From Moniliella sp. 'wahieum' (lineage: Eukaryota): a stretch of DNA of 64,000 nucleotides. The notes below the pieces were generated by a model, which worked only from the letters and a program-made list of their open reading frames with translations, made no database searches and was not told where the DNA came from. This document shows positions 3,203 through 48,331 of the stretch, in pieces; positions within the stretch are counted from its first letter, which is position 1, and each line of letters begins with the position of its first letter. The translations under genes were made by a program, and so were the position numbers. The DNA lies in the NCBI GenBank assembly GCA_003971905.1, contig RSEE01000016.1, forward strand, positions 248,001 to 312,000, given 5' to 3'.

Positions 3203-6200
3203 ATGTCTGCCCCGGTTAAGCACGCACCCGAGCCCGACCCGGACGCCCATGCCCCCTCCTCCCCCCTGGCCCCAACTCCGGGGCCTGAGGAGGACGCCCC
3301 TCCCATGGACCTCTCCATGGAAAAGATTGGTGATGCGGCTGTCTCCCCTGGCAGCCCCAAAGCCACCCCCCACAAGACCAAAGTGCGTGTGACGGGCACC
3401 CCCCAGCGCACCCCCGCTTCCCCCCGTCACCCGCCCGTCAGCGGGCGGACCCCAGGTCATCAGCGCACCCCCTCTGCTGGCCGCCGTCCGCTTACCGCTC
3501 CCACTCGAGCGTCCGCTGCGAAATCTGCCTTTGCCCAGGGCTCGACACCGGGTATATCCCATGGCCAGACAGAGGGCCGCCGCTCGTCGACAATGGGCCA
3601 TCATGCTAGCCACTCTTCCGGTTCTGGCACCAATGGCAACCCTCTCCATGTTTCCGCTCCACGCGCATCGGTTGTCACAGCGAGTGCGGTTCTTGCTACC
3701 GGCACCCCAGCACCCACGGCACGCAAGATCACCAGCTCCATCCCTTCCCACCGTGTCCAACGCAACACCACCAAGCCTGCCCGCGCCTCGGTACCTCCTG
3801 CCTCTGGCCCTGCAGCAGGTGCCGCTTTGACTTCTTCCCCAAAGAAAGACGAGTTGCAGGAAAAGTTGGACAAGGCATTGTTGGAATTGAGTGAGACCAA
3901 AAAGGCCCACCAAGCGGCCTTGGATGAATTGACCCGTCAACACCGTGAGGATTTAGCCCGCACCCGTGCCACTTCCGAGGAGCTGGAGGCAGCCAAAAAG
4001 GCGATCCAAGAAGGCAAGTCAGCTCATGCTCAGGCCGTGAAAGACTTGACCGAAGCCCAAGCCGTTCACCTGCATCAGGTGCAGGAGGAGCAAGCCCAAG
4101 CCTTTCAACTTCTCACAGCAGAAAAGGAGCAGATTGCTGAGCGCTCTAAGGCGGTGGAAGAGAATTTGCAGCAGGCCAAAAACGAGTGTTTGGCCCTGCA
4201 AACTGATCGGGAAACTCAACTCGCTTTGTTGAAAGAAGCTCACGAGGCTCAATTGGCTGCCCTGAAGGCTGCTCATGCCGAGTCTTTGGCTGGGCGCGAG
4301 GAGGAAATCGCATCCCTCCGTAAAGAGCTGGAGGTTGTACAGCAAGCGCAGGAACAGTCTAGCAGCGCTGTGGAGGAGCTCAAGAAACTCACTGCTGCCT
4401 ACGCTCAAGAGGAAAAGCAGGTTCAAGCAGCGCAGCAAGCGCTACTTGTTGCTGAAGAGGGAAAGAGAAAGAGCGACACCCTTCTGCTTGAGATGCAGGG
4501 TAACGTTCAAACTCTGGAGGCTCAACACGAAGAGCAGCTCTCTGAGACGACCCGCCGTCTCGAGAAGGAGCTTACGACGGTGAAGGAGGCTCTTGCAGAA
4601 GCCGAAAAGCAGCATCAACTGACCCTTGCTACTCTCACTGAGGAGAAGGGAAAGGTTGAAACCGTGTCGCGAGAGGGTGCCGAGTACAAGTCAACAGCTG
4701 AAACGGCCTCTCTTTCTCTGAAGGCTGCACAAAAGAGCTTGCCACGGTCCAAAAGTCTCACGCTGATGCACTTGCCAAGCTCACAAAGGAAAACGAGGAA
4801 AAGATCCGAACCCTTCTTGAGGGGAAGGACAAGGAAGTTAAGGAGGCAGCCCAAAAAGCTGAAGAACAGCTTCTGCTTGCCCAGGCTACTTTACGCTCCG
4901 CCCAAGAGGAACATGCCCTTACCGCATCCAAACTCGAGGAGGAGCATAAGGCTGTTCTTGCTGCACATGTAGAGCAGACGCAAAGCACCGCCAAGGCTGC
5001 CGCGGAAACAGCTGAAAAGGAACTCTTGTCGGCTAAGGATGCCCTCACCCAGGCCGAGAAGGAGTTTGATACTGCAAAATCCAAAATGGCGGTGGAACAC
5101 GAGGGTCAGATCAAGCTTCTAACTGAAACTCATGACAAGGCATTGAAAGAGGCACTTGCCAAAGGGGAAGCCGATGTTCATGCTGTTCAGGATGCCCTTA
5201 CCATGGCAGAAGAGAAGACCAAGCAACTTGGGCTCGAGTTACACAGCAAAGAGGAACAGATTCTGCGGTTGACGGAAGCGCAGGAAAACCACACTCTTGC
5301 CGCTCAGGAAGAGATCAAGTTGGCCAAGGAAGATGCGGCCTCGGTTCGAGCCGAATTGGATCATGCGCTGAAGGTCTCTGCCGGTCGAGCAGAGCAGATC
5401 ACGGCGCTCACCGCCCAGCTGGACCAGACTGCATCTAAAATTGCCGAGGCTGAACACGGCGAAGGCACTAGCTCAGGATGCGTTCGCCAAGGAATTGGAA
5501 GGCCTGCGGGACACCCTCACCAATGATCACCGGACGGCGCTGGAAGGGCAACGGAGCGAGATGTCTCGACTGCGCCTTGAAGTCGAAACCGCGGAGCGGG
5601 TTCATGCCAAGGCGCTTCAAGATGCTGAGGCTCAGCGCTCGACCGAAGCCGCAGCCGCCAAAGCCGACCATGACCACGTTCTTCGTCAGCTGGAGGAGTC
5701 CCAACAACATTTGGCTATCGAGGAGACAAAGCGGGTTCAGGCTGAGAAAGACCATACCGCCCTTCTTGCTCAGCTGAAGGAGGTCAAGTCGACGTACTTA
5801 CCCCCCAGGAAAAGAAGGCACTCGAGGCCCGACTGGCTGCCATTGGTAAGGACCTTTCACAGGCACAGGCTGAGAAAAATAAGTCCGTGCAGGAGGCCGC
5901 TGAGCATATTGCTGCTCTTGAGAAGGCTCGGGATGAAGCCGCCGTCCAGGCGGCTGAGAAGCGCGCTCAAGATCAAGAGAATACCCGGCTGGTGGTATTG
6001 GAAAAGGAAAGGGCGTTTGCCGCTGAACTCAAGGAAAAGGATGCAGTCTTGACGGTATGTCCATTTCGCTTGTGCCCACCCCAAGGGCGAAGAACACTAA
6101 CAGGCGATACAGGCAACCAAAGAGCAACTGGCGGATGCATCACAGGAGCGGGACAGTGTCTTGGCCAAGCTTCTTGCGCGAGTGGAGCCAGTGGAGGTAA

Positions 6201-9200
6201 GCCGGGTACAATCTGACGACGACCCGGCCGACTTGGTGGAGCAGCATGCACGGCACGTGCGCGAGGTGGCTGCACTGACCAAGACCCACGACGCGCGGAT
6301 CACTGAGCTGCAACGGCTCCAAGCGGCGCATGAACAGAAGGAGGCGCTGGCGCAAAGCTCCATGCGGCGCTCGTCGGGCCACCTCCAACACCAACTCCCA
6401 TACCAAGCCCAGCAACGCAGGTGAGTGATTTGTCCAGCAGACGTGACGCGTGACGCGTCACCGTGGCTTGCCTCAACTTGAATACTGACGCGGATTTTGC
6501 ACCTTCCGCTTTTACCAGCACCAGAGTACCGACAAGAAAGATGAGCCCGTTGAGGACACAAGTGTGAAAGTTGCCTCTTTGGCTCATGCCCTGATCAAGA
6601 ACAATGCCGAGGCCGCAGAAGCATCCAAAAGCATCAACAGCCAAATTGAAGACAGGGAACTGAACATTGGGGCCGAACAGGCTACTGCCGCTACGGCCCA
6701 AGAGGCTAATGTTCAGGCTGCTCCCGTTCCTCCCAAGGATGTAAAGGCCGAGGAGAAGGCTGCTACGCCCAAGGAGGAGGTGAAGGTCGAGCCTGCTCCC
6801 GCTGCTCCCCAGGAGGAGGCCAAGGTCGAGGAGAAGGCCGCTGCCCCCAAGAAGCAGGTCAAGGTAGGGGAGAAAGCCGCTGCCCCCAAGGACGAGGTCA
6901 AGGTTGAGGCTGCCCCCGCTGCTCCCAAGGAGGTGAAGGCCGAGGAGAAGCCTGCTGCTCCCAAGGAGGAGGTCAAGGTTGAGGCTGCTCCCGCTGCCCC
7001 CAAGGAGGAGGTCAAGGTTGAGGCTGCCCCCGCTGCTCCCAAGGAGGTGAAGGCCGAGGAGAAGCCTGCTGCTCCCAAGGAGGAGGTCAAGGTTGAGGCT
7101 GCTCCCGCTGCCCCCAAGGAGGAGGTCAAGGTCGAGGAGAAGGCCGCTGCCCCCAAGGACGAGGCCAAGGTTGAGGCTGCCACCGCTGCTCCCAAGGAGG
7201 TGAAGGCCGAGGAGAAGCCTGCTGAGCCCAAGGAGGAGGTCAAGGTTGAGGCTGCCCCCGCTGCTCCCAAGGAGGCGAAGGCCGAGGAGAAGCCTGCTGC
7301 TCCCAAGGAGGAGGTCAAGGTTGAGGCTGCTCCCGCTGCCCCCAAGGAGGAGGTCAAGGTCGAGGAGAAGGCCGCTGCCCCCAAGGACGAGGCCAAGGTT
7401 GAGGCTTCCACCGCTGCTCCCAAGGAGGTGAAGGCCGAGGAGAAGCCTGCTGAGCCCAAGGAGGAGGTCAAGGTTGAGGCTGCCCCCGCTGCTCCCAAGG
7501 AGGCGAAGGCCGAGGAGAAGCCTGCTGCTCCCAAGGACGAGGCCAAGGTTGAGGCTGCCACCGCTGCTCCCAAGGAGGTGAAGGCCGAGGAGAAGCCTGC
7601 TGCTCCCAAGGAGGAGGTCAAGGTTGAGGCTGCCCCCGCTGCTCCCCAGGACGAGGCCAAGGTTGAGGCTGCCCCCTGCGCCCAAGGAGGTGAAGGCCGA
7701 GGAGAAGCCTGCTGCCCCCAAGGAGGAGGTCAAGGTTGAGGCTGCCCCCGCTGCCCCCAAGGAGGAGGTCAAGGTCGAAGCTGCACCCGCTGCCCCCAAG
7801 GAGGAGGTCAAGGTTGAGGCTGCCCCCGCTGCCCCCAAGGAGGAGGTTAAGGTTGAAGCTGCACCCTGCTCCCAAGGACGAGGCCAAGGTTGAGGCTGCC
7901 ACCGCTGCTCCCAAGGAGGTGAAGGCCGAGGAGAAGCCTGCTGCTCCCAAGGAGGAGGTCAAGGTTGAGGCTGCCCCCGCTGCTCCCCAGGACGAGGCCA
8001 AGGTTGAGGCTGCCCCCGCTGCGCCCAAGGAGGTGAAGGCCGAGGAGAAGCCTGCTGCTCCCAAGGAGGTGAAGGCCGAGGCGAAGCCTGCTGCTCCCAA
8101 GGAGGAGGTCAAGGTTGAGGCTGCCCCCGCTGCTCCCAAGGAGGTGACGGCCGAGGAGAAGCCTGCTGCTCCCAAGGAGGAGGTCAAGGTTGAGGCTGTC
8201 CCCGCTGCTCCCAAGGAGGTGAAGGCCGAGGAGAAGCCTGCTGCCCCCAAGGAGGAGGACAAGGTTGAGGCTGCCCCCGCTGCTCCCCAGGAGGAGGCCA
8301 AGGTTGACGCTGTCCCCCTCTCCCAAGGAGGTGGCCAAGCTCGAGGAGAAGGCCGCTGCTCCCAAGGACGAGGCCAAGGTTGAGGCTCCCCCCGCTGCGC
8401 CCAAGGAGGTGAAGGCCGAGGAGAAGCCTGCTGCTCCCAAGGATGAGGCCAAGGTTGAGGCTGTCCCCGCTGCTCCCAAGGAGGTGAAGGCCGAGGAGAA
8501 GCCTGCTGCCCCCAAGGAGGAGGACAAGGTTGAGGCTGCCCCCGCTGCCCCCAAGGAGGAGGTCAAGGTCGAAGCTGCACCCGCTGCCCCCAAGGAGGTG
8601 AAGGCCGAGGAGAAGCCTGCTGCTCCCAAGGAGGAGGTCAAGGTTGAGGCTGCCCCCGCTGCTCCCCAGGAGGAGGCCAAGGTTGAGGCTGTCCCCGCTG
8701 CTCCCAAGGAGGTGGCCAAGCTCGAGGAGAAGGCCCCTGCTCCCAAGGACGAGGCCAAGGTTGAGGCTCCCCCCGCTGCGCCCAAGGAGGTGAAGGCCGA
8801 GGAGAAGCCTGCTGCTCCCAAGGATGAGGTCAAGGTTGAGGCTGCTCCCGCTGCCCCCAAGGAGGAGGTCAAGGTCGAGGAGAAGGCCGCTGCCCCCAAG
8901 GACGAGGCCAAGGTTGAGGCTGCCACCGCTGCTCCCAAGGAGGTGAAGGCCGAGGAGAGCCTGCTGCTCCCAAGGACGAGGCCAAGGTTGAGGCTGCCCC
9001 CTGCGCCCAAGGAGGTGAAGGCCGAGGAGAAGCCTGCTGCCCCCAAGGAGGAGGTCAAGGTTGAGGCTGCTCCCGCTGCCCCCAAGGAGGAGGTCAAGGT
9101 CGAGGAGAAGGCCGCTGCTCCAAGGACGAGGCCAAGGTTGAGGCTCCCCCCGCTGCGCCCAAGGAGGTGAAGGCCGAGGAGAAGCCTGCTGCTCCCAAGG

Positions 9201-12200
9201 ATGAGGCCAAGGTTGAGGCTGCCCCCGCTGCTCCCAAGGAGGTGAAGGCCGAGGCGAAGCCTGCTGCTCCCAAGGAGGAGGTCAAGGTTGAGGCTGCCCC
9301 CGCTGCTCCCAAGGAGGTGACGGCCGAGGAGAAGCCTGCTGAGCCCAAGGAGGAGGTCAAGGTTGAGGCTGCCCCCGCTGCTCCCAAGGAGGCGAAGGTC
9401 GAGGAGAAGCCTGCTGCTCCCAAGGAGGAGGTCAAGGTTGAGGCTGCTCCCGCTGCCCCCAAGGAGGAGGTCAAGGTCGAGGAGAAGGCCGCTGCCCCCA
9501 AGGACGAGGCCAAGGTTGAGGCTGCCACCGCTGCTCCCAAGGAGGTGAAGGCCGAGGAGAAGCCTGCTGAGCCCAAGGAGGAGGTCAAGGTTGAGGCTGC
9601 CCCCTGCTCCCAAGGAGGCGAAGGCCGAGGAGAAGCCTGCTGCTCCCAAGGACGAGGCCAAGGTTGAGGCTGCCACCGCTGCTCCCAAGGAGGTGAAGGC
9701 CGAGGAGAAGCCTGCTGCTCCCAAGGAGGAGGTCAAGGTTGAGGCTGCCCCCGCTGCTCCCCAGGACGAGGCCAAGGTTGAGGCTGCCCCCGCTGCGCCC
9801 AAGGAGGTGAAGGCCGAGGAGAAGCCTGCTGCTCCCAAGGAGGAGGTCAAGGTTGAGGCTGTCCCCGCTGCTCCCAAGGAGGTGAAGGCCGAGGAGAAGC
9901 CTGCTGCCCCCAAGGAGGAGGACAAGGTTGAGGCTGCCCCCGCTGCTCCCCAGGAGGAGGCCAAGGTTGACGCTGTCCCCGCTGCTCCCAAGGAGGTGGC
10001 CAAGCTCGAGGAGAAGGCCGCTGCTCCCAAGGACGAGGCCAAGGTTGAGGCTCCCCCGCTGCGCCCAAGGAGGTGAAGGCCGAGGAGAAGCCTGCTGCTC
10101 CCAAGGATGAGGCCAAGGTTGAGGCTGCCCCCGCTGCTCCCAAGGAGGTGAAGGCCGAGGCGAAGCCTGCTGCTCCCAAGGAGGAGGTCAAGGTTGAGGC
10201 TGCCCCCGCTGCTCCCAAGGAGGTGACGGCCGAGGAGAAGCCTGCTGCTCCCAAGGAGGAGGTCAAGGTTGAGGCTGTCCCCGCTGCTCCCAAGGAGGTG
10301 AAGGCCGAGGAGAAGCCTGCTGCCCCCAAGGAGGAGGACAAGGTTGAGGCTGCCCCCGCTGCCCCCAAGGAGGAGGTCAAGGTCGAAGCTGCACCCGCTG
10401 CCCCCAAGGAGGTGAAGGCCGAGGAGAAGCCTGCTGCTCCCAAGGAGGAGGTCAAGGTTGAGGCTGCCCCCGCTGCTCCCCAGGAGGAGGCCAAGGTTGA
10501 GGCTGTCCCCGCTGCTCCCAAGGAGGTGGCCAAGCTCGAGGAGAAGGCCCCTGCTCCCAAGGACGAGGCCAAGGTTGAGGCTCCCCCCGCTGCGCCCAAG
10601 AAGGTGAAGGCCGAGGAGAAGCCTGCTGCTCCCAAGGAGGAGGTCAAGGTTGAGGCTGCCCCCGCTGCTCCCCAGGACGAGGCCAAGGTTGAGGCTGCCC
10701 CCGCTGCGCCCAAGGAGGTGAAGGCCGAGGAGAAGCCTGCTGCTCCCAAGGAGGAGGTCAAGGTTGAGGCTGTCCCCGCTGCTCCCAAGGAGGTGAAGGC
10801 CGAGGAGAAGCCTGCTGCCCCCAAGGAGGAGGACAAGGTTGAGGCTGCCCCCGCTGCTCCCCAGGAGGAGGCCAAGGTTGACGCTGTCCCCGCTGCTCCC
10901 AAGGAGGTGGCCAAGCTCGAGGAGAAGGCCGCTGCTCCCAAGGACGAGGCCAAGGTTGAGGCTCCCCCCGCTGCGCCCAAGGAGGTGAAGGCCGAGGAGA
11001 AGCCTGCTGCTCCCAAGGATGAGGCCAAGGTTGAGGCTGCCCCCGCTGCTCCCAAAGGTGAAGGCCGAGGCGAAGCCTGCTGCTCCCAAGGAGGAGGTCA
11101 AGGTTGAGGCTGCCCCCGCTGCTCCCAAGGAGGTGACGGCCGAGGAGAAGCCTGCTGCTCCCAAGGAGGAGGTCAAGGTTGAGGCTGTCCCCGCTGCTCC
11201 CAGGAGGTGAAGGCCGAGGAGAAGCCTGCTGCCCCAAGGAAGGACAAGGTTGAGGCTGCCCCCGCTGCCCCCAAGGAGGAGGTCAAGGTCGAAGCTGCAC
11301 CCGCTGCCCCCAAGGAGGTGAAGGCCGAGGAGAAGCCTGCTGCTCCCAAGGAGGAGGTCAAGGTTGAGGCTGCCCCCGCTGCTCCCCAGGAGGAGGCCAA
11401 GGTTGAGGCTGTCCCCGCTGCTCCCAAGGAGGTGGCCAAGCTCGAGGAGAAGGCCCCTGCTCCCAAGGACGAGGCCAAGGTTGAGGCTCCCCCCGCTGCG
11501 CCCAAGAAGGTGAAGGCCGAGGAGAAGCCTGCTGCTCCCAATGAGGTCAAGGTTGAGGCTGCTCCCGCTGCCCCCAAGGAGGAGGTCAAGGTCGAGGAGA
11601 AGGCCGCTGCCCCCAAGGACGAGGCCAAGGTTGAGGCTGCCACCGCTGCTCCAAGGAGGTGAAGGCCGAGGAGAAGCCTGCTGCTCCCAAGGACGAGGCC
11701 AAGGTTGAGGCTGCCCCCGCTGCGCCCAAGGAGGTGAAGGCCGAGGAGAAGCCTGCTGCCCCCAAGGAGGAGGTCAAGGTTGAGGCTGCTCCCGCTGCCC
11801 CCAAGGAGGAGGTCAAGGTCGAGGAGAAGGCCGCTGCCCCCAAGGACGAGGCCAAGGTTGAGGCTGCCACCGCTGCTCCCAAGGAGGTGAAGGCCGAGGA
11901 GAAGCCTGCTGCTCCCAAGGACGAGGCCAAGTTGAGGCTGCCCCCGCTGCGCCCAAGGAGGTGAGGGCCGAGGAGAAGCCTGCTGCCCCCAAGGAGGAGG
12001 TCACGGTTGAGGCTGTCCCCGCTGCTCCCCAGGAGGAGGCCAAGGTTGAGGCTGTCCTCGCTGCTCCCAAGGAGGTGGCCAAGCTCGAGGAGAAGGCCGC
12101 TGCTCCCAAGGACGAGGACAAGGTTGAGGCTGCCCCCGCTGCCCCCAAGGAGGAGGTCAAGGTCGAAGCTGCACCCGCTGCCCCCAAGGAGGTGAAGGCC

Positions 12201-15200
12201 GAGGAGAAGCCTGCTGCTCCCAAGGAGGAGGTCAAGGTTGAGGCTGCCCCCGCTGCTCCCCAGGAGGAGGCCAAGGTTGAGGCTGTCCCCGCTGCTCCCA
12301 AGGAGGTGGCCAAGCTCGAGGAGAAGGCCGCTGCCCCCAAGGACGAGGCCAAGGTTGAGGCTGCCACCGCTGCTCCCAAGGAGGTGAAGGCCGAGGAGAA
12401 GCCTGCTGCTCCCAGGGACGAGGCCAAGGTTGAGGCTGCCCCCGCTGCGCCCCAAGGAGGTGAGGCCGAGGAGAAGCCTGCTGCCCCCAAGGAGGTGGTC
12501 ACGGTTGAGGCTGTCCCCGCTGCACCAAGGAGGAGGCCACGCTCGAGGAGAAGGCCGCTGCCCCCAAGGATGAGGCCATGATTGAGGCTGCCCCCTGCGC
12601 CCAAGGAGGTGAAGGCCGAGGAGAAGCCTGCTGCTCCCAAGGACGAGGTCAAGGTTGAGGCTGTCCCCGCTGCTCCCAAGGAGGTGAAGGCCGAGGAGAA
12701 GCCTGCTGCTCCCAAGGAGGAGGTCAAGGTTGAGGCTGCCCCCGCTGCTCCCCAGGAGGAGGCCAAGGTTGAGGCTGTCCCCGCTGCTCCCAAGGAGGTG
12801 GCCAAGCTCGAGGAGAAGGCCGCTGCCCCCAAGGACGAGGCCAAGGTTGAGGCTGCCACCGCTGCTCCCAAGGAGGTGAAGGCCGAGGAGAAGCCTGCTG
12901 CTCCCAGGGACGAGGCCAAGGTTGAGGCTGCCCCCGCTGCGCCAAGGAGGTGAAGGCCGAGGAGAAGCCTGCTGCCCCCAAGGAGGTGGTCACGGTTGAG
13001 GCTGTCCCCGCTGCACCCAAGGAGGAGGCCACGCTCGAGGAGAAGGCCGCTGCCCCCAAGGATGAGGCCATGATTGAGGCTGCCCCCGCTGCGCCCAAGG
13101 AGGTGAAGGCCGAGGAGAAGCCTGCTGCTCCCAAGGAGGAGGTCAAGGTTGAGGCTGCCCCCGCTGCTCCCAGGAGGAGGCCAAGGTTGAGGCTGTCCCC
13201 GCTGCTCCCAAGGAGGTGGCCAAGCTCGAGGAGAAGGCCGCTGCTCCCAAGGACGAGGCCAAGGTTGAGGCTGCCACCGCTGCTCCCAAGGAGGTGAAGG
13301 CCGAGGAGAAGCCTGCTGCTCCCAGGGACGAGGCCAAGGTTGAGGCTGCCCCCGCTGCGCCCAAGGAGGTGAAGGCCGAGGAGAAGCCTGCTGCCCCCAA
13401 GGAGGTGGTCACGGTTGAGGCTGTCCCGCTGCACCCAAGGAGGAGGCCACGCTCGAGGAGAAGGCCGCTGCCCCCAAGGATGAGGCCATGATTGAGGCTG
13501 CCCCCGCTGCGCCCAAGGAGGTGAAGGCCGAGGAGAAGCCTGCTGCCCCCAAGGAGGAGGTCAAGGTTGAGGCTGCCCCCGCTGCTCCCCAGGAGGAGGC
13601 CAAGGTTGAGGCTGTCCCCGCTGCTCCCAAGGAGGTGGCCAAGCTCGAGGAGAAGGCCGCTGCCCAAGGACGAGGCCAAGGTTGAGGCTGCCCCCGCTGC
13701 CCCCAAGGAGGAGGTCAAGGTCGAAGCTGCACCCGCTGCCCCCAAGGAGGTGAAGGCCGAGGAGAAGCCTGCTGCTCCCAAGGAGGAGGTCAAGGTTGAG
13801 GCTGCCCCCGCTGCTCCCCAGGAGGAGGCCAAGGTTGAGGCTGTCCCGCTGCTCCCAAGGAGGTGGCCAAGCTCGAGGAGAAGGCCGCTGCCCCCAAGGA
13901 CGAGGCCAAGGTTGAGGCTGCCACCGCTGCTCCCAAGGAGGTGAAGGCCGAGGAGAAGCCTGCTGCTCCCAGGGACGAGGCCAAGGTTGAGGCTGCCCCC
14001 GCTGCGCCCAAGGAGGTGAAGGCCGAGGAGAAGCCTGCTGCCCCCAAGGAGGTGGTCACGGTTGAGGCTGTCCCCGCTGCACCCAAGGAGGAGGCCACGC
14101 TCGAGGAGAAGGCCGCTGCCCCCAAGGATGAGGCCATGATTGAGGCTGCCCCCGCTGCGCCCAAGGAGGTGAAGGCCGAGGAGAAGCCTGCTGCTCCCAA
14201 GGACGAGGTCAAGGTTGAGGCTGTCCCCGCTGCTCCCAAGGAGGTGAAGGCCGAGGAGAGCCTGCTCCCAAGGAGGAGGTCAAGGTTGAGGCTGCCCCGC
14301 TGCTCCCCAGGAGGAGGCCAAGGTTGAGGCTGTCCCGCTGCCCAAGGAGGTGGCCAAGCTCGAGGAGAAGGCCGCTGCCCCAAGGACGAGGCCAAGGTTG
14401 AGGCTGCCACCGCTGCTCCCAAGGAGGTGAAGGCCGAGGAGAAGCCTGCTGCTCCCAGGGACGAGGCCAAGGTTGAGGCTGCCCCGCTGCGCCCAAGGAG
14501 GTGAAGGCCGAGGAGAAGCCTGCTGCCCCAAGGAGGTGGTCACGGTTGAGGCTGTCCCCGCTGCACCCAAGGAGGAGGCCACGCTCGAGGAGAAGGCCGC
14601 TGCCCCAAGGATGAGGCCATGATTGAGGCTGCCCCCGCTGCGCCCAAGGAGGTGAAGGCCGAGGAGAAGCCTGCTGCTCCCAAGGAGGAGGTCAAGGTTG
14701 AGGCTGCCCCCGCTGCTCCCCAGGAGGAGGCCAAGGTTGAGGCTGTCCCCGCTGCTCCCAAGGAGGTGGCCAAGCTCGAGGAGAAGGCCGCTGCTCCCAA
14801 GGACGAGGCCAAGGTTGAGGCTGCCACCGCTGCTCCCAAGGAGGTGAAGGCCGAGGAGAAGCCTGCTGCTCCCAGGGACGAGGCCAAGGTTGAGGCTGCC
14901 CCCGCTGCGCCCAAGGAGGTGAAGGCCGAGGAGAAGCCTGCTGCCCCCAAGGAGGTGGTCACGGTTGAGGCTGTCCCCGCTGCACCCAAGGAGGAGGCCA
15001 CGCTCGAGGAGAAGGGCTGCCCCCAAGGATGAGGCCATGATTGAGGCTGCCCCCGCTGCGCCCAAGGAGGAGGCCACGCTCGAGGAGAAGGCCGCTGCCC
15101 CCAAGGATGAGGCCATGATTGAGGCTGCCCCCGCGCCCAAGGAGGTGAAGGCCGAGGAGAAGCCTGCTGCTCCCAAGGACGAGGTCAAGGTTGAGGCTGT

Positions 15201-16353
15201 CCCCGCTGCTCCCAAGGAGGTGAAGGCCGAGGAGAAGCCTGCTGCTCCCAAGGAGGAGGTCAAGGTTGAGGCTGCCCCCGCTGCTCCCAGGAGGAGGCCA
15301 AGGTTGAGGCTGTCCCCGCTGCTCCCAAGGAGGTGGCCAAGCTCGAGGAGAAGGCCGCTGCCCCCAAGGACGAGGCCATGATTGAGGCTGCCCCCGCTGC
15401 GCCCAAGGAGGTGAAGGCCGAGGAGAAGCCTGCTGCTCCCAAGGACGAGGTCAAGGTTGAGGCTGTCCCCGCTGCTCCCAAGGAGGTGAAGGCCGAGGAG
15501 AAGCCTGCTGCTCCCAAGGAGGAGGTCAAGGTTGAGGCTGTCCCCGCTGCTCCCAAGGAGGAGGTCAAGGTCGAGGAGAAGGCCGCTGCCCCCAAGGAGG
15601 TGAAGGCCGAGGAGAAGGCCGCTGCCCCAAGGAGGTGAAGGCCGAGGAGACGGCCGCTGCCCCCAAGGATGAGGCCAAGGTGGAGGCTCCCCGCTGCTCC
15701 CAAGCCGGTGAAGGCCGAGGAGAAGCCTGCTGCTCCAAGGAGGAGGTCAAGGTTGAGGCTGCCCCCGCTGCGCCCAAGGAGGTGAAGGCCGAGGAGAAGC
15801 CTGCTGCTCCCAAGGAGGAGGTCACGGTAGAGGAGAGGCCGCTGCCCCCAACGACGATGCCAAGCTTGCGGATAAGCCGGCTGCTCTGCAGCAGGTTAAG
15901 CAGGAGGACTCTCAGCCGGTTCGTTTGCTCGCCCCACTTCTTGCGGCCATAACTTCTCTGACCCTCCTCATTTTCTTCGTTCTTTCGGATTTGTTCCCTG
16001 GTCCGCTGCTTGTTCCCTTTTAGTATGGTTTATGTCCACTCAACAGTCGATGGAGTTGTCCCTGATGTTTCCAAGCCCTCTCCTTCTCTTTCCGATAGGT
16101 CTGCACGCGACCAGTCGGCCTCGCCTGTGGGCTCGTTCTCCTCGGTCTGGGCCGTGATCCCGCCCGCCAAGGACATTGATGCCAGCTCGACTGACACGCT
16201 GCACGAGGAGCCCGCTTTGGTCAAGCCCGAGCCCCTTGGCGCCCAGCATACTGATACGAAAACCAAGGTCAGCCATGATGTGATGATTGTTTCAAGCGCT
16301 CAAACCCACATGCGCCAATGGATTTTTATCTTCAGACCAAGTACCAGCACTGA
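3203..16353 (+). CDS. Giant coiled-coil plus Ala/Pro/Lys/Glu/Val tandem-repeat protein (about 4,300 aa, reconstructed across frameshifts)
   Basis: ATG at 3203 (MSAPVKHAPEPD). S/T/P/R-rich head to about 3840, then E/K/A/Q/L coiled-coil-like ORF pieces to about 6370. Introns 6055-6112 (GTATGT..ACTAAC..CAG) and 6421-6518 (GTGAGT..CTGAC..CAG). Repeat to about 15850. Probable introns about 15919-16047 and 16268-16335, then TKYQH-stop at 16351-16353. Confidence 0.75.
6710..15860 (+). repeat. Coding minisatellite of 39-bp (EEVKVEAAPAAPK type) and 36-bp (EVKAEEKPAAPK type) units, roughly 240 units
   Basis: Directly visible: gaggaggtcaaggttgaggctgcccccgctgctcccaag and gaggtgaaggccgaggagaagcctgctgctcccaag and variants repeated over about 9.1 kb. 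Unit count estimated as length divided by about 38. Confidence 0.98.
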
Positions 16354-19300
16354 TCCATATTGATTTTCTCGTAGTAAAACGGCTGTTAAACGCAACCAGC
16401 TGTAAATGCGTAGAAGAACATAGGCTCCCATGCGAAATGATTATAATGAACGGTTGAACTTCAACCTTGAACCCTTGCCTCTTGGCCAATCTATTAGCGT
16501 AGCAGATCGCTACTATATTGCACACGTTCCAACCCAGGATAGTAGGAGCTGAAGGATTGACGGTGATACAGGCCGGCCTGTTCTGGTTCCTTCGTGCATC
16601 GATCCATAGCATCGTGGTCCGTTTGATTAAAATGATTTGTGCTTACTCGTGTTGCGAATCCATATTCATAGAAGGAGACCAAAAATGGAATCGGGTCTTT
16701 ATAGACCCTCTCTTTTTTGCCTCTCCCGCCAACATTCGCTTCCAAACTGAATGATCCACAAGTGTATACGCACGAGCGCATCGGAAATAGAACGATGGGC
16801 CATGCTGGCATAGTATTATCTGCGCGTCGTCACAAATAAACCAAGAGGATGACGAATGGCTCTATTGAGTGCGTCCCTGCTGTCATTTGTTGGCATTCTT
16901 GTCCAATTGCGGTTACTGCAAAACAGTGAAAACAACTCTCCTTTTCTCCCGAACGGCATTCGCACGCTTCCCGGTTTTTTCTCGTGTTGAGAGCCACCGC
17001 CCTCCGGTACGTAACCATGCTCTTCATCTTTCCCGAGAGAGCTCCTGCAGGTGTGGTTTACCTCCATTCTACTCCTTCCAACGCGCCCAGGAGTAGTCCC
17101 ATTATGCCGTAGTCCGTTCGTCTGCCTTCTGCCCACACCGCAGCTATCATAACATCATCGTCCCAGAAGAGCGTACGAGCTGGAGGATTCTAGCGCCCAA
17201 CAGCCTCATGCAAAGCGCGCTAAACTTGGATTGAGTGTATGCTGGTGCAATAAACAAAACTCAAGAAATAACAGTACTGGCTCATGAGCACGTTAAAGTA
17301 ATCAGTCTTCGTCAGTCCCTACTACCTAAGGGGTTCTCGTTCCCCCGGACCAGCCGACACCCCATTATACAGAAGAAAGCATCACTCTTTTGGCCAGCAC
17401 ATCGCTCACCCCCTTCAATAACTGAATTATTATATGGAACGAAGCAAGTGGCAAAGTTTGGTTTGTAGGTATAGCTGAGAGTAAAATACCGTCATATGCA
17501 TCCCTTTCGAATTGAAGGGTAATTGGTAATCATTCTATCACAATTGAACTTGGACATATGCCTTCCTGCCTTATTGCCTCTCGCTCATGGTCCCGAAGAG
17601 CCACGACAGGCGACAGTCCTCATTTCCCATGCAAACGGACCCGCAGGACGTGGTTGCTGGTTGGGCCACACAGTGTTCGGTCAGTGGGTTTTGCCCCAAC
17701 CACACAGAGTTTTATATTTTAGCACAGGATCGCTGTGAACACGACGTTTACGCCTTATTTGTATACCCACACCCTGAGAAAGTAACTCTCTCTGTAGTGA
17801 ACTTGTCCACATGTCTATGGAGATGAGGAGATGCACTCAAAGCAGGCGGGGTCTCCCCTACACCGAGACTCCCTGAAATAGATCGATGAGACCTCAGACT
17901 GAAGCAGGCCTGAAGCCTGAAAAGGGCCTGAGATCACTGACCTCTGTGTGAGAACAAACTCGATGAGGCACCACCCCCAGTTTCTTTCGAACTCCCAATG
18001 TCATCCGCAGCGCGTATATAAGGCGTAAGGCCTAAGGTCCAAGGCTGCTTTTGCTATTCACTGTTCCACAATGCAGCAGTCACATATACCCCTGTCTGGC
18101 GGCTGCGGCGTCGTGGAGGGCGATGGATACATAATGCAGGAACACAGGGGCCGAAAACGGCAAGGTAGTGGAAGGATGCAGTGCGGGCTCAACGTATAGT
18201 TAAAGCGAATAACGGGGGTTTTATATGCGGTGTGCATGTGCATATGTGAAGCTTGATAAAGTGAGTGATGCAGTGACTTAGAGATGGTCGATGGTGGATG
18301 TGCCGGAGGGCTGGGCGTGGTAGAGGATGGAGGGGCCGCGGAGGCTGTGTGAGATGTATAAGGGGGACTCAGGTGTCGGTACCTGTCGGTACCTGTCCGT
18401 GTACTCAGTGTCGGACTTATGAGGGTTAGCGCTCAGGGTGACGGTGATGCTGGTGATGGGCGGTAGCCGGTGCCAGGCGGTAGCCTCGGGTTGATATATG
18501 ATAGGGTGTCCGTGGGACGAAGCCGCTGGGTTCCAGAACCCTCCGCAGTGGGCCTGATATATGATAGGGCTTGATGTATATGAGGACTTGACGCGTCCGA
18601 ACGGGCCGGCTGCCGAGACATGGGTGCGGCACATGGGAGGCGCAGGCCAAGTCCACCGTGTGGAGCTGGCAGAAGCGGAGCCAGTGGAACCCACGCACCT
18701 GTCGAGTGTAAGCGCCTGATGATCGATGACCTGCGATGCATGATGCACGTGATGATCGATATACGATGCGCCCATCTTCGTCCGACGTGCGCGTGTTGCG
18801 GGATGAGTGTGATGCATGATGTATGACGCATGCAGCCAATCGATCATCATGCATCATGCATCATGCACCATGGATGCAGGGGCCAGGGGTGCACAGGTGC
18901 CCCCGTGGCCTGTGAGACATGTGACAAGTCGGAATCGAGGTGGGGTGCTACGCGCGAAAAATGCATAATGCATCCAACGCCCAACAGCCATCCAATATCC
19001 ACCCGCCATTCTCGGCCGGCCGCACCAGCATCGACGAACTGAGTGATTATAATCACAGTGAATACTGCATTGCTGATCGAAATGCCCCCCCCTTCTCTGT
19101 CTGCGTCGCACATACCAGCCGCCTGTCTTCGTGACCTTCTTTGGCCCCACGCCCTTTGGCCATCGCGCGCGCTTCCACCCATGGGCCTCCCCTTGCCTAG
19201 CTGGGCCACCGCTCCAGCCTCCGCCCATTTTGGAAGAGGCGGGATGCTCCTTCGCCCCCATCCGCTTCCGCCACAGACCCCACCATCCCTGCCGCCATCC

Positions 19301-34977: not shown

Positions 34978-36972
34978 TTACTTCAGATGTGTCTGGAAAA
35001 AGTCCTTGACCAGGTACGCCGAACCAAGGTACGTCCGCGGCAGCTTGGGCTGAGTGTAATCGACACTCTGCAATCCAAACCGGGGCTCCTTGCCCACTTC
35101 CCACTCGACGTTGCAGGTAGCGGACCACAGCCAAGCACCCGAAATTTTGATCCATCAGTCTGGATGGACTCGAGTATCTGGTTGAGGTAGCCGTAATAGT
35201 ACGATTGCCGTCCTGCGTCCATAACCAACTGATGGAACGACGTCTTCTTTGCTTCGTCGCGTTCGGCCCAGCCAAATTCAGAAATGACAATCCCATTAGG
35301 GGTAGGCCAGCGCTTGCTAAGGTACTGCAAGTGGGACCGCAGCGCCCGGGGTGGAGGAGAGCCAGGATCCAACCGTGTCGTCCGGGTACTCCTCTGCGAT
35401 GGGCCAACCATCGGACAGTGTGTAGTTGCCCCGGTTGCACTCAGGCCAACTTGGATGATCCACATTGCCAAAGCAGCTGTCCGCTTTGGATTTGGGCATG
35501 GAGCGGATAATGGAGCTAGAATAATAGTCCGTACCATAAAAGTCGCCCGAGTTTTTGAGCCGCTGCTTCTTGGTCCGTCAAGGCTGGCAACCAGGCCGAT
35601 GGAACCTCCTTCTTGACTATATCCGGATAGTCGTGCGAAGCAGAGTGGATGGGATCGCTGAACAGTCCCAAGCCAAAGTCCAAATCCCGCTCCACGGCAT
35701 CGACATCGCGTTGGTTGTTCTGGTCCCAGGGAAAGTTGAGGCTGCCACTGTTCTTGAAGGACAGCAAGGCCGACTTGGAGACCGTCCCGGTTTTTTGGTA
35801 TTTGCGGAATAATTCGTTCATCCGTCCGTGGGCTTTGATCGTCGTGGCCGAGCACGTCCACCGCGTGGATTGGGGGGCTGAATCGTACCCATAGATGCCG
35901 GTAAGCACAAGGAGGTAGCGAATGCCGCAATGGACTTGTGGCTCATTGTGAGAGACCCAATGCTAAAAAGAGGTGATGTGAAATGTCAGATGTAGTCAAT
36001 AAGGCGGAACGGGAGATGCACAGGTGGGGGTGGGGCATGGAGGAAGAGAATCAAAAACATACTTTGACCCCCATTGGACCCAATGCTTTGAGCATCACAT
36101 CTGCGTACTCGGCGAATGCATCAGCATACGTGAGGTTTGCATTCCATTTTCTGCAATCTGTAGGTAGAGTGGAAGGTCCCAATGCTGGAGCGTGACGGCA
36201 GCTTCCATCCCGTTGTTGTGGATTTCAGTCACCAGGTCCTTGTAGAACTGCAGCCCCTGTTGCGACACGTATCCGCGGCCCAGCGGCATGACACGAGACC
36301 AAGAGACTGTGAACGAGTACAGCTTGGCACCCATTGTGGCAACCCGTTTAATGTCAAGTGGATACATGTACCGGAAATTGGTCGCCACATCAAACGTGTC
36401 GTTATCGCGCATGCCATTGGTGCGGTGCGCGTACCAGTCCCAGACTGAGGGTCCACGCCCATCAGCTTTCACCGCACCTTCGACCTGAGCACTGGCAGAT
36501 GCATACCCCCACAAGAAGTCGGATGGCAGAGTGACATTGTCCTGCGTTGTGCGATGAAAATCAACCTGGTATGGACGAGCACTGATGCCAGTCGAGAGCA
36601 TTCTGTACTCGTTTTTGGTGAAGTTGCGGTACTCGTACTCAATCGCGGCATGCTCGACTGGCTTGTACTTCTCCACTTGTGACCAGAGGTATTTGACACG
36701 CCCTTTGACTGCGGCCTCGTTGTTGTAATCGATGGGTTCAGCGCCAGAAGGGACCGTTCCACCAGCTTGGACGTTGGGATTGCTATTGGAGTTGCTGGTG
36801 GTGGTTTTGGCTGCATGCGGTGGGACAGCGTTGGGATGACGGGGACTCCTACGTCCCAAGACGCCCATGTGCCCCAAAGGGGACGCCGACGATGCTGAGG
36901 CACCTGTGGCTCGTGCAAAAGAGTGATGGCGGCTGTCATGCCAGCGGCCATGGCAGCAAGAGAGAGGCGCAT
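34978..36972 (-). CDS. Glycoside hydrolase family 1 beta-glucosidase, probably secreted or cell-bound
   Basis: LPSDFLWGYASASAQVEGAVKADGRGPSVWD, YSFTVSWSRVMPLG, TLQHWDLP, acid/base motif HNEP (about 35940), nucleophile motif ISEFG; hydrophobic N-terminus MRLSLAAMAAGMTAAITL; intron near 35965-36060. Confidence 0.92.
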
Positions 36973-37716
36973 GGTGGGGAAGGAGCGGCGGTGGCGCGGG
37001 CTGCGTGTGCGATGGAGGAGATGAGAGGGTTGGGCTGCCTGGATGTGCACAGGGCAATCCGTCGGCCCGTAGGCCTTATTGTTGTACGTTGTTGAATGCC
37101 CACCGCCGTGTGGGGCCCTGGGCTAGGCTCGGCCGGCCCCCCACGCCGCGCCACACACACTGTCCCTACGCCTTGCTTGGCGTGTGTCTCCACCCACGCA
37201 GCAGGGCAGTGTGGATGTCTCGGCACAAGCGCGTCCGCTGGCCTGGTACCTGGGCGATCGTCGAGGTCGCCCGGTCGGTCATACTCCTAGGTCATCGGTT
37301 AGCGCTCAGCGCCAGCGCCCAGCGCTGAGCCAAGCAGAGCCCAGAGCTGCCGCGCGCCGAGCCACCTGTCAGGATTGCAGTACGGCCCGCTTTGGCCGCG
37401 TGGCGTAGCTCCAGAAGAGCCAGCTGGTTGTAGCCGCCTTTCGGGGCCTGGGCTGAGCTTCGAGCGTTTGCGACCACATGTATCTCCAGAGGAGCCATAT
37501 ATCGTCTTTCCGTGCTGTCTTTTAGCTGTCCACCTACAGCACTCCTGTCTTTCAGTGGGCAGGCAGTCCTGGTCGTCTTTTGATGCGAGGTTACAATCAG
37601 GTATCCCCCTGGCCAACCCCTATTAGGAAACAGTTGGCACAAGCCGACCAGATACTGGATCAACAGCTTTATCTAAAAGGAGCATATTCAATTCGGTGCC
37701 GTAGAGGCAGATATAT

Positions 37717-40721
<3,005 letters not shown>

Positions 40722-41060
40722 GGCGGAAGGGCAGATGCGGGTGGTGGAGGGGGCGACGGAAGGGAGACGAGCTCGGGCTGCCAGTCGTCGAGGGAGGCAG
40801 CAGCAAGCATGCCCGAGTCCCGTTTTAGCTCAGAAGCAGCCGCCTTGGTGCTTCGAGTCAGAACAGGTCAGAACCGGAACCCCCGCCACCCCCTTCCGCC
40901 CGTGGGCGGAATTCGAAAAATGATAACCGCTAACTGGTAGCGCTAACGGGTAACGCGTAGCGGGTAGCCCCCACGACAGGCCTGGCTTTTGTTTCGGTTC
41001 CGGGGCCTGCTGGTCGCTGCGTTTGCCTGCCACCGCCGCTCCCATTGCTTCGTCTGTGCC

Positions 41061-45075: not shown

Positions 45076-46707
45076 TTACTCGATGTCGTGTTGCTGGATC
45101 ACATCATCAATCTTGAGCACAGCGCGGACGAGCTGGGTGGCCAGCAGCAGCTGCTGTCGCTTAGACACCAGCGGGTCCCACACATACGCTTTCTTCATGT
45201 CGCCCGCCCCATCCGCCGAGGTGCCCATGCAGTCGATCCCCAATCGCGGGTTGGACTCGAGCGCTTGCCTGCTCTTCGCCGCCGCCAGGCTCTCGATTGG
45301 GCTCAAGCCACTGTTGGCCGCCAGAGCGAGAGGGGTGGCATCCAGTGCCTGGCTGAAGGCACGGATGGCATACTGTTCCACAGATGGCTCCTTATCCGCC
45401 ACAGCGCTCACTGCAAGCCCAGCGGAAATCTCGGCCGCACCACCGCCATAGACCACGCGGTTGTCTCGCACCAACGAACGGACGACACTCATGGCATCGT
45501 GCAGGGAGCGGCGCCTCATCGACAATCATCTTGTTGCTCCCGCGGACAAAAACAGTCACCGCGCGCGCATTGGCGCACTCCTCAACCACAAGCATCTTGT
45601 CCCGCGTCGTGCCAAAGCCCACCTGGCGCACCACGCCAGCCCGTCCTAACTTGGCGGGGGCTAGGTCCTCGAATCGAGGAACAATCCGACCCCCCGTCGC
45701 GATCGCAACAAGCTCCATCTCAGGTCCACCAACCCATCGGACGGCGGGGAGATTGTGTTGGAGCAGCAGGTGGTTCGCTTCGTCATCAAAGCCCCACTGG
45801 CACACGACCAGGTTGGCTCCCGCATCTTTGACTTGCTGGATCATCTTTTCGAACGTCTCCCGTTCGTACGTCTCAAGCTTACGGTACTCTTCAACGGTCG
45901 TAATGTCGAGCTTGTGCTTCGTCTTGGGACGGGGTGGCTCGAAGGGGCACGTGAGGATCGCAATCCGGGCATCATGAACTGCCCGGGGCATTTGCGGGTG
46001 GCTAAAGTCCTTGTCGAGTACCACGCCATGCACCAATGTGGTGTCATCGAGGGAGCCTCCGACCTTGCCGTCGACCTTGATCAGCTCGAAGTCCACATCC
46101 CGCCGCTCCAAGTCAGCAACAGAAAGAACTGCATCAACAGCAATCTGAGCAAACTTGTCGCTTGACTTGTTTACAATCTTGGATCCCAGCGACGTCTTGG
46201 CTACCTTGAGTAGCTCGCTCGTGTTCTCACGGCTAAAGGGGATCGTGTCGGCAACTTTCTCCAGCTCAGCCACCGCGATCTCGCAGGCACGGTCGTAGCC
46301 ATCTGCAATGCGGATGGGGTGAATGCCTTGTCAATCAAGGCCTCCGCCTGCTCGAGAAGAGCCCCCGCCAAGACGACGACGCCCGTCGTACCATCGCCGA
46401 TTTCGTCGTCTTGGGCCTTAGAAAGCTCAACAAGTAGCTTGGCCACCGGATGCTCGAGCTCCATGTTGTTCATGATCGTGGCGCCATCGTTGGTGACTTG
46501 GATGTCGCCATCGGGGCCGATGAGAATCTTATCCAACCCACGCGGGCCGAGGGAGGTCTTGACAATGTTGGCAACCGTCTTGGCAGCGGCGATGTGAGCC
46601 TTGATCGCCTCAACACCATGGGCACGTGTCTTCTTGCCTTGCTCACGCACGACAATAAACGGACGCCCGTATTCGTCCTGAGCGTATGCCACCTGCGGCT
46701 CAGCCAT
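45076..46707 (-). CDS. CCT5: T-complex protein 1 subunit epsilon
   Basis: [77 protein letters not shown]. Confidence 0.98.
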
Positions 46708-47391
46708 GATTGACGTGGTGGTGGCGAAGAGGGGGGGGTGGTGGGAGAAGGAGGAGAAAAGACGAATTGGACACGACGCGCTGCCGCGCTACCAGTGGTG
46801 CACCGCAGGCTCGCGCCCTGCTGGTGGGCGGAACGCTTCGGCTTGCTTCTTCCCGCCCGCATGCATTAGCATAGCATGCCCCCACTGCCCCGGCGCCCGG
46901 CATCCGAGGGAGCACAAGACCAGTGTACGCCGTCTTCAATGTTCAATTCCCAGCCACAGGACATTTGGCGCAGGCCGCTTCTGCTCCTTCAGACAGGGGC
47001 CCGGGCCACCCCAGGCAAGCCCCCGCCGCTTCCTTTCCCCAACACCCAGTCCATCCAAGCACCTCACGTTTTACGCTTTTCCCACAAGTTGTACAAACGC
47101 CAAGTGGAACGTTGGATAGGGCATCGAGCATGGCGGCGCTCACAACTATCGACCTAACAATTGCCTGCCAATAACGCGTACGAAAGAAAGACGAACACAA
47201 CTCCTCGCAACAAGAAAGTCCCACATGCATGCAATGCGACAGGCGATGGCCACATGTAGGAAGGTACGAGGCGGGATTTATGGTGGACAAGGATGACAAT
47301 AACACCAGTTGGAGCACAGATGTTGTTGGCGATTCGATGCCCCGGTAGCAAGGGCAGGGAGACCGAAGGGTGGCGCAGATTGTGTTCACAT

Positions 47392-48331
47392 TTACTTGTA
47401 AACCTTGCCAAATAGCACTTCCTGGAGCTTGTCGTAGCCCGAAAGCACACCAGCACCGGCCACACCACGAAGAATGTTGGCACCAGCACCCTTGAAGAGC
47501 GACTTGACGCCCTCCTTGGCGACAATCTGGCGACCGGCGTCGAACATGCCGTTGTAGTGGGTCTTGCCGCCCGAGGTCATCATCATGCGACGGCGGATCG
47601 TGTCCAGAGGGTACGACGCAATGCCGGCACCGGTGGTCACCACCCAGCCGAGAAGGAAGGAGGCAAGGAACGAACCCTCAAGAGGGCCAGTGATAATAAC
47701 AGGCTTGACCGAGTCGTACACACCGAAGTAGAGACCACGGTAGACCACAATACCGACAACCGAGGGGATAAAGCCACGGTACAGACCAGCGACACCGTCC
47801 GAGGCAATCGTCTTGCGGTAGACGTCAATGAGGCCGTTGAACTGGCGCTCACCACCCTTGCCGGCCGACTTGGCGTCGTTGGCAAGACGGGTACGGGCGT
47901 AGTCGAGGGGAGTAGACAAAGAGAAGCGACGAGGCACCGGCGGCACCACCCGAGGCAATGTTGGCGCTGAGCTTCTTGACGTAGGGAGCATCCTTGGGCA
48001 CCTTGAACAGGGCCTTGAAGTAGTCCTTGAAGGCAAAGTTGAGAGCCTGGGTGGGGAAGTAGCGGATAACGTTGGCCGTGTTGCCGCGCCAGAAGGAGAC
48101 AAGGCCTTCCGACTTGTAGGTGCGGGTAAAGGTGTCGCCGAGACCGCTGTAGGGGCGGTCGAGACGGCCCTGCTTGATCATCTCATCCTGGTTCTGGATG
48201 AGGAGCTTGACACGCTCAATGGGGGCAGCCGCCGTCTTGGAGACAGCGGCCGAGATGCCACCCATCATGAAGTCGGTGAAGAACGACGACGCCGTCTTGG
48301 GCTTCTGCGCAGGGTCGACAACGGCACCCAT
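47392..48331 (-). CDS. AAC: Mitochondrial ADP/ATP carrier
   Basis: [55 protein letters not shown], signature RRRMMM. Confidence 0.98.

Follow-up and report, generated by a model that had tools for sequence, protein, structure and literature searches.

To our knowledge, giant disordered tethers in fungi are known solely from Leashin of filamentous ascomycetes. The Leashin paper describes an acidic P/E-rich repeat linker, which its authors likened to titin PEVK, and reports Leashin, HEX and WSC from Pezizomycotina only (PMC2690989). For Lah of Aspergillus fumigatus, a second paper states that a C-terminal transmembrane segment is required for targeting (PMC5345055). The locus described here was found in a 64,000-nt stretch of fungal DNA (the window), on the + strand between position 3203 and approximately position 16353. 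The locus is real. The best overall explanation, to which we give even credence, is that it is a single, intact and spliced nuclear gene. With the same balanced confidence, its product may be a cytoplasmic, long and flexible tether or spacer that is analogous, not homologous, to Leashin.

Gene organization and coding strand

The predicted product has, after frame correction, about 4,240 amino acids (about 442 kDa). Its four parts follow each other in the order basic Ser/Thr/Pro-rich head, helical heptad rod, polyampholyte array and short C-terminal part (Table 1). A previous sequence-only reading of this DNA had proposed a head, a rod and a PEVK-like array in one spliced gene, followed by a short unique tail. 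The anatomy of head, rod and array stands. The frame, however, is not continuous in the assembly, where it is broken 35 times, and the 3′ exon structure behind the “short unique tail” is ambiguous.

Table 1. Features of the locus, with positions in the window.
Feature	Positions	Strand	Description
Head	3203–3835	+	211 aa; begins at the first in-frame ATG (3203)
Rod, first exon part (pieces 1–4)	3836–6054	+	736 aa; helical, heptad-periodic
Intron 1	6055–6112	+	58 nt; GTATGT...CTAAC...CAG; direct reading; codon score −0.68
Last rod piece, then short P/T-rich stretch	6113–6420	+	Rod piece of 86 aa
Intron 2	6421–6518	+	98 nt; GTGAGT...CTGAC...CAG
Acidic unique linker	6519–6710	+	64 aa
Tandem array	6711–15886	+	~244 units of 36 or 39 nt (PKEVKAEEKPAA and PKEEVKVEAAPAA types)
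Unique post-repeat coding stretch	15887–15918	+	Continues in the frame of the final repeat block
Hydrophobic segment and stop	15919–16023	+	In frame after the array; 20-aa window, then 14 codons; stop at 16021–16023
Non-coding-looking stretch, probably intronic	16024–16114	+	Candidate acceptor sites ending at 16075, 16098 and 16114
Coding-like tail exon	16115–16267	+	51 codons; GC3 0.80; codon score 0.31
Possible last intron (16268–16335), then 5-codon end	16268–16353	+	Stop at 16351–16353; model of the sequence-only reading, tentative

The head has a pI of 11.6 and a net charge of +13, with 33 Pro, 50 Ser/Thr and 12 SP/TP sites. Its start carries no signal peptide-like sequence, as had been noted before. 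The rod totals 822 aa with 3 Pro only. Its heptad periodicity is significant in pieces 1 and 2 (z-scores of 4.4 and 2.9), where an excess of hydrophobic residues at positions a and d is also seen, and non-significant in the three short pieces. A single-sequence AF2 run predicts the first 299 residues of the rod to be one helix (residues 2–298, pLDDT 81). Supposing a coiled coil, the rod would be ~120 nm long. The acidic linker that follows intron 2 lacks a start codon and the array must therefore be spliced onto the rod.

The coding strand was shown to be the + strand. A minus-strand ORF of 1308 aa (positions 7847–11773) was rejected as a coding sequence because its codon score is 0.00, versus 0.47 for the + frame. 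Its openness is a by-product of the codon composition of the array: since TTA and CTA hardly occur among its codons, minus frames stay open opposite to it. Two lessons for annotation can be drawn from this locus, where a 13-kb gene was hidden by the combination of indel errors and a repeat, and where the 1308-aa frame that is open on the other strand is a mere shadow.

Frame breaks and the tandem array

Four of the 35 frame breaks lie in the rod (near 4733 in an A run, 5458, 5803 in a C run and 6373 in a G run) and 31 in the array. An intron was considered as an alternative to the rod breaks and dropped, as the overlaps leave no space for one. Walking the frame through the array identified 21 shifts with one base missing and 10 with two bases missing or one extra. 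At 23 of these 31 sites sister copies with identical 24-nt flanks have one or two extra bases and are in frame, and at 29 of the 31 sites the shifted form occurs only once. Runs of at least three identical bases adjoin 25 of the 35 break sites. Frame changes are also found in neighbouring genes: six, all intron-less, in the one for AlaRS (by comparison with a relative of 95% identity and with a named homolog) and two in that for CCT (as judged by continuity of the Pfam profile). The breaks behave as sequencing or assembly indels with one or two bases missing, not as decay, because no in-frame stop is found in the 3139 codons of the frame-walked array, sister copies are in frame and the essential AlaRS and CCT genes are likewise broken. 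The same observations bear on the reading in which the locus is non-functional, either as a pseudogene or because the array is an over-expanded or chimeric artefact of assembly. The 35 breaks in the assembled gene and the failure of our searches to find homologs speak for it, but the essential neighbours share both the kind and the density of the breaks, which are all deletions and in most cases have intact sister copies. We consider a non-functional locus quite improbable.

The array is real: it extends over 9.2 kb with periods of 36, 39, 75 and 114 nt, and one of its 36-nt units is found verbatim 35 times (0 expected). It codes for about 3,050 aa in units of 12–13 aa. A, E, K, P, V and D account for 2983 of the 3139 residues in the frame-walked sequence (95%), the sum of P, E, V and K being 1999 (64%). 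Ala makes up 29% of the array and Ser is found only 8 times. The array has a net charge of −198, 41.7% charged residues and 14.4% Pro, spaced at one per 3–13 residues. Its units had been described as neutral to slightly acidic, and indeed the common 12-mer has a net charge of 0 and the common 13-mer of −1. AF2, run on the array as a single sequence, predicts no helix (mean pLDDT 43). An acidic polyampholyte that is predicted to be unstructured, joined to a rod whose length is sufficient for bundling of chains, could also work as a brush, spacer or condensate scaffold, in which rod assemblies carry the charged arrays as protruding side-arms that, like neurofilament tails, define spacing or exclude volume. 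Yet no intermediate-filament rod domain was found in Pfam, the scarcity of Ser leaves no place for a KSP-type phospho-regulation, and a distinct C-terminal end module better fits a tether with two ends. We regard the brush as unlikely.

At the DNA level the array is, from the likeness of its units, very young and homogenised. Only 15 DNA versions are found among the 68 twelve-residue units and 34 among the 128 thirteen-residue units, and variation at third codon positions barely exceeds that at the other two. Exact internal duplications of up to 367 nt occur at many offsets; despite them, the autocorrelation has no peak beyond multiples of the unit and a global super-repeat was discarded. The youth of the array DNA weakens the claim of an anciently tuned spring. 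Furthermore, near-equal variation at all codon positions combined with low DNA diversity means that selection at the peptide level is not demonstrated. The length of the array may be polymorphic or mis-assembled.

Low unit diversity, near-equal variation at the three codon positions and exact duplications are features of a runaway coding minisatellite. According to this explanation an ordinary lineage-specific coiled-coil protein would have acquired a recent, expanding 36/39-nt array that is tolerated as soluble and inert, with a length that is untuned and varies between strains. That no long protein with like repeats was found among proteins of 675–2000 aa is also in its favour. The complete lack of stops after indel correction, the restriction of 95% of the positions to six residues and the codon score of the array (0.47, the highest within the gene) argue against it, as does the presence of different modules at its two ends, with head and rod on one side and the hydrophobic segment or tail on the other. 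The minisatellite is a possible explanation, albeit a doubtful one.

The C-terminal end and a proposed mechanism

No transmembrane segment was evident in the sequence-only reading. This has to be revised since the in-frame stretch 15919–16020 includes a 20-residue window with a mean Kyte-Doolittle value of 2.54, a level reached by just 29 of 17104 open non-coding windows. With a codon score of 0.09, the segment exceeds the 95th percentile of open non-coding windows (0.00) and falls at about the 5th percentile found for coding windows (0.08). Of its 34 codons, 20 have T in second position (chi-square p 0.0125). Pyrimidines make up 75% of the stretch, versus 48–55% in the two sure introns. The GTTCGT at 15919 is a possible intron donor, in which case the segment would be the 5′ part of an intron: an error-free splice from 15919 to 16075 or 16114 would delete the candidate anchor and join the strongly coding-like tail exon in frame. 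Keeping both anchor and tail exon implies one extra assumed 1-base error in the assembly. Fixation of the C-terminus would most likely occur via the hydrophobic segment inserted in a membrane, which we favour slightly; otherwise it would occur via the short tail exon.

The tail exon codes for the sole Trp of the whole protein (~4,244 residues). It lies in a W-x-x-I motif with preceding serines, which we take to be the consensus of Atg8-binding motifs. The position of this Trp could be accounted for if the protein were an adaptor of the selective-autophagy type, whose cytosolic tail would bind Atg8. However, we roughly estimate that a tail of this size would carry such a short motif by chance with a probability of a few per cent, Pfam revealed no further domain related to autophagy, and an anchor ahead of the tail would place the motif across the membrane. 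We consider an adaptor of this type highly improbable.

In the tether or spacer that we prefer, the rod, a predicted helix, would pair two chains and the array would act as an entropic spring, measuring a few tens of nm when relaxed. Its contour length, foreseen as near 1 µm, was computed to be ~1.1 µm. The basic, phosphorylatable head would bind one partner and the C-terminal end would be fixed to another structure. Leashin and tail-anchored golgins work on this principle too, though no homology to them is detectable. A more specific proposal, which we advance only tentatively, is that the protein arose by convergence as the basidiomycete equivalent of Leashin: a dimeric spring of ~1 µm contour length that would be anchored in a membrane by its C-terminus, and whose basic head would hold the nucleus, the cytoskeleton or an organelle elastically, at a set distance from the membrane. 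A unit of 12/13 residues (A/P/K/E/V) would have given rise to it within a short span of evolution. If true, to find this design in an unrelated protein from a smut-related basidiomycete would imply that such a solution for organelle positioning arises repeatedly. The extremely regular unit would also provide a natural model polymer for entropic springs in cells.

Search for relatives and comparison with known systems

The best named relatives of the AlaRS encoded by a neighbouring gene belong to Ustilaginomycotina (about 80% identity) and the host is, by this sequence measure, an Ustilaginomycotina (smut-related) fungus. Closer relatives reach 91–95% identity in AlaRS. No match at E ≤ 0.001 was obtained when the head and first rod part (521 aa) were compared by phmmer with 1.84 billion representatives, and the same query found none in a word-based search of longer proteins. 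The array with its linker matched no protein in the 675–2000 aa range. Metagenome contigs yielded no match, either in a protein scan or in a scan with the exact 36-nt unit, nor did PDB sequences queried with the array. No Pfam family scored above cut-off with the head, all rod pieces, the array or the tail; the remaining rod and the tail were compared against Pfam only. At E up to 10 the rod pieces showed no Filament match and the 57-aa C-terminal piece no match at all, including any KASH or golgin signature. The ESM Atlas returned only generic coiled-coil clusters, under the feature count that marks kin, and no match for the C-terminal piece. A literature search found neither a basidiomycete protein of such kind nor a paper with the unit peptides. 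The earlier remark that no basidiomycete equivalent was recognised therefore holds more widely, no basidiomycete or other homolog being found in the protein, metagenome and Pfam searches. It had also been asked whether the rod belongs to a characterised family, and Pfam assigns it to none (no intermediate-filament rod, Ig or Fn3 domain). Because the host has no close named relative, the lack of homologs carries little weight; with no homolog found, conservation can support no function.

The composition of the array had been likened to titin PEVK and to neurofilaments. This likeness was borne out, whereas membership of either family was not, since the protein has no intermediate-filament rod, Ig or Fn3 domain. 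The array shares with titin PEVK its short proline-punctuated units, the proportion of P, E, V and K, the lack of structure predicted by AF2 and a micrometre-scale contour length. It differs by its Ala content, by the absence of Ig/Fn3 domains in Pfam and by its non-sarcomeric context, and no homology was found. The tails of neurofilament-H/M are long, charged and Lys/Glu/Pro-rich, with KSP phosphorylation repeats. A helical rod combined with a tail of that composition is found also here, but the protein lacks KSP repeats as well as an intermediate-filament rod domain (Pfam).

Giantin/golgin-type tail-anchored tethers and KASH proteins are comparable in their very long cytoplasmic part and a possible single C-terminal anchor, which would be followed by 14 residues beyond the hydrophobic window if the stop at 16021–16023 is used. 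In the present protein this anchor is a candidate only and no Pfam signature of these proteins was detected at E up to 10. KASH proteins have a C-terminal end of the PPPX type, unlike the one found here.

Leashin/Lah is a giant fungal protein with a non-conserved, acidic, P/E-rich tandem-repeat middle and predicted coiled coil, and the present protein is similar in these respects. In its length, net charge, proline content and proportion of charged residues the array resembles such a linker, though the likeness is one of kind alone. Behind the array comes a TM-like segment, which splicing may remove. There is no detectable sequence similarity between the two, and the conserved N-terminal (Woronin-body binding) sequence of Leashin was not matched by the head and first rod part. 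Other differences are the host (Ustilaginomycotina instead of Pezizomycotina), the repeat, which is an Ala/Lys-rich polyampholyte in contrast to the strongly acidic “PELS” of Leashin, and the position of the rod, N-terminal to the array in the present protein. With its candidate anchor, the protein would be closer to Leashin than to titin or NF-H.

Gene organization and coding strand

Open-frame reading and Tandem Repeats Finder located the head, the rod and the repeat array where a sequence-only reading had placed them (see table). The head (211 amino acids; 33 Pro, 50 Ser/Thr and 12 SP/TP sites) has a net charge of +13 and a pI of 11.6. It is followed by a rod rich in A, E, L, K and Q, read in five pieces that total 822 amino acids and include only three prolines. 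AF2 modelling of the first 299 rod residues from the single sequence yielded one helix spanning residues 2–298 (mean pLDDT 81). The two long rod pieces show heptad periodicity (z = 4.4 and 2.9) and a hydrophobic excess at positions a and d (0.36 and 0.42 vs 0.28 ± 0.03); the three short pieces showed no significant periodicity. The reading frame that leads into the array is open from 6489 onward only and lacks its own start codon, so that array and rod must be joined by splicing as one gene. The summed parts give a protein of about 4,244 amino acids (about 442 kDa).

Coding potential was scored by codon-usage log-odds trained on those parts of the window's other genes that have Pfam support. 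A 1308-aa Leu/Gly/Ser-rich ORF antisense to the array was rejected as a gene on its score and is a shadow frame, open only because the array has TTA and CTA once each.

Features of the gene and of its surroundings in the window
Feature	Position	Strand	Remarks
Head	3203 (first ATG)	+	frame opens at 2999; CT-rich stretch before the ATG
Rod frame changes	near 4733, 5458, 5803, 6373	+	direct reading
Intron	6055–6112	+	standard signals GTATGT, CTAAC, CAG
Intron	6421–6518	+	standard signals GTGAGT, CTGAC, CAG
Repeat array	6711–15886	+	single array; periods 39, 75 and 114 nt; in-frame codon score 0.47 per codon
1308-aa ORF	7847–11773	−	codon score 0.00 per codon
Hydrophobic segment	15919–16020	+	candidate membrane anchor
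Stop codon	16021–16023	+	
Tail exon	16115–16267	+	coding-like
W-x-x-I motif	16184–16195	+	serines before it
Stretch downstream of the gene	16400–19200		about 2.8 kb; lower G+C; no convincing coding frame on a quick open-frame look
DUF1765 family gene	starts near 19.2 kb		next gene downstream
Glycoside hydrolase family 1 gene	34986–37075	−	in several frame pieces
Alanyl-tRNA synthetase (AlaRS) gene	37720–40754	−	six frame changes
CCT/TCP-1 chaperonin subunit gene	45079–46788	−	three frames, two frame changes
Mitochondrial carrier gene	47395–48628	−	read in two overlapping frames; probably another assembly frameshift
G-rich tandem repeat	61818–61892		short; 9-nt unit TGGGGGCGA, about 9 copies; adjoins ankyrin/PH-domain gene region

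Frame breaks and age of the array

At three of the four rod frame breaks reading is restored by one base added to a run of A, C or G. Introns were ruled out at all four, the overlaps between frames being too short. A frame walk over 6519–15925 gave 3139 codons with 31 shifts and no stop; one base is missing at 21 of the shifts, while the other 10 correspond to two missing bases or one extra. Sister copies with identical 24-nt flanks on both sides carry the 1–2 additional bases at 23 of the 31 array sites, at 29 of them the shifted version has no second copy, and 25 of the 35 breaks found in rod and array adjoin a homopolymer of three or more bases. Essential neighbouring genes show this defect too. 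The frame changes of the AlaRS gene are intron-less and leave no gap in the protein when compared to a 95%-identical relative and to a named homolog, which implies that indel errors extend across the whole window (roughly one per 400–500 nt of coding DNA). The Pfam profile of the chaperonin subunit likewise runs through both frame changes of its gene without loss. Such indel errors are typical of long-read consensus sequences. We read the frame breaks of the repeat gene as assembly errors. The lack of stops in the array counts against a decaying pseudogene, in which stop substitutions are expected. This is a genuine gene, and most likely an intact one.

About 244 units form the mosaic of the array, among which the 12-mer PKEVKAEEKPAA (net charge 0) and the 13-mer PKEEVKVEAAPAA (net charge −1) are most frequent. 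One 36-nt unit is present in 35 verbatim copies and in none of the shuffles. In the frame-walked reading A, E, K, P, V and D account for 2983 of the 3139 residues; 41.7% are charged (net −198), 14.4% are proline and the longest proline-free stretch has 22 residues. An AF2 single-sequence model of 321 array residues has no helix (mean pLDDT 43). Using general per-residue lengths, the array contour length is about 1.1 micrometre, close to the 1 micrometre anticipated earlier, and the rod, if a coiled coil, would measure about 122 nm; the worm-like-chain size of the array is 33–66 nm for assumed persistence lengths of 0.5–2 nm.

Among the clean units, the 68 12-mers share just 15 DNA versions, and the 128 13-mers share 34. 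Codon position 3 is barely more diverse (0.094 and 0.186, respectively) than positions 1 and 2, and exact duplications within the array reach 367 nt. The array is thus young or strongly homogenised and cannot serve to show that the peptide is under purifying selection. In the main rival explanation, the array would be a recent minisatellite expansion, tolerated without a tuned role.

The 3′ end of the gene

From the last repeat block the frame stays open across a unique stretch and on into the hydrophobic segment. The most hydrophobic 20-residue window of this segment averages 2.54 on the Kyte-Doolittle scale, and the stop comes after another 14 codons. The anatomy proposed by the sequence-only reading holds, except that its statement of no evident transmembrane segment is probably wrong. 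Several features favor a genuine membrane segment. Its hydrophobicity is matched in just 29 of 17104 open 34-codon windows of presumed non-coding DNA. The segment has a codon score of 0.09 (−0.37 and −0.25 in its other two frames); open non-coding windows have their 95th percentile at 0.00 and coding windows their 5th percentile at 0.08. T occupies codon position 2 in 20 of its 34 codons (p 0.0125), and its pyrimidine share is 75% vs 48–55% in the two sure introns. Against a membrane segment stands the tail exon, which is clearly coding-like in a different frame (GC3 0.80, codon score 0.31, within a 133-codon open frame). Splicing from GTTCGT at 15919 to an acceptor that ends at 16075 or 16114 would join this exon in phase with zero assumed errors and would remove the segment. 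Anchor and tail exon may also both be kept if the exon runs to a GTATGG donor at 16023, the intron then spanning 16024–16114 (codon score −0.16); this requires that the T run directly before the donor be a base longer, such a loss being the commonest error type here. Between these models, we lean slightly towards the candidate anchor being real. The protein's single Trp lies in the W-x-x-I of the tail exon, which may, as a weak lead, be a short binding motif.

Relatives and comparison with known tethers

No Pfam family was found above cut-offs for any part of the protein. A phmmer search of 1.84 billion cluster representatives gave no match to the head and first rod part, and word-based comparison with longer proteins found none for head plus rod 1 or for the array. 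Two scans of metagenome contigs and a PDB search were likewise empty; the Atlas returned generic coiled-coil clusters only. An AlaRS piece used as control found 7992 relatives, the best two at 95% and 91% identity. Its best named relatives, at about 80% (Tilletiaria, Pseudozyma, Kalmanozyma, Thecaphora and Violaceomyces), place the host among Ustilaginomycotina fungi. At this distance from named relatives a rod and head that evolve fast could go unnoticed, and the "orphan" status means no detectable relative rather than proof of uniqueness.

This unusual case, which merits experiment, depends on a single assembly with many errors, and the array, its most striking feature, is evolutionarily young. 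Two distinct ends, a very long, proline-punctuated, well-solvated polyampholyte, and a rod that would pair chains suggest that the protein is a lengthy, flexible tether or spacer, a function that we only infer. By every sequence criterion applied, the protein falls outside the Leashin, titin and neurofilament families; the likeness lies in the working principle. As described in PMC2690989, which reports Leashin only from Pezizomycotina, its N-terminal end binds the organelle and its C-terminal end the cortex, and its linker has non-conserved acidic repeats (consensus PEEVELPASP) that the authors liken to titin PEVK; according to PMC5345055, the Aspergillus fumigatus protein requires a C-terminal transmembrane segment. 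Leashin is the closest functional analogue.
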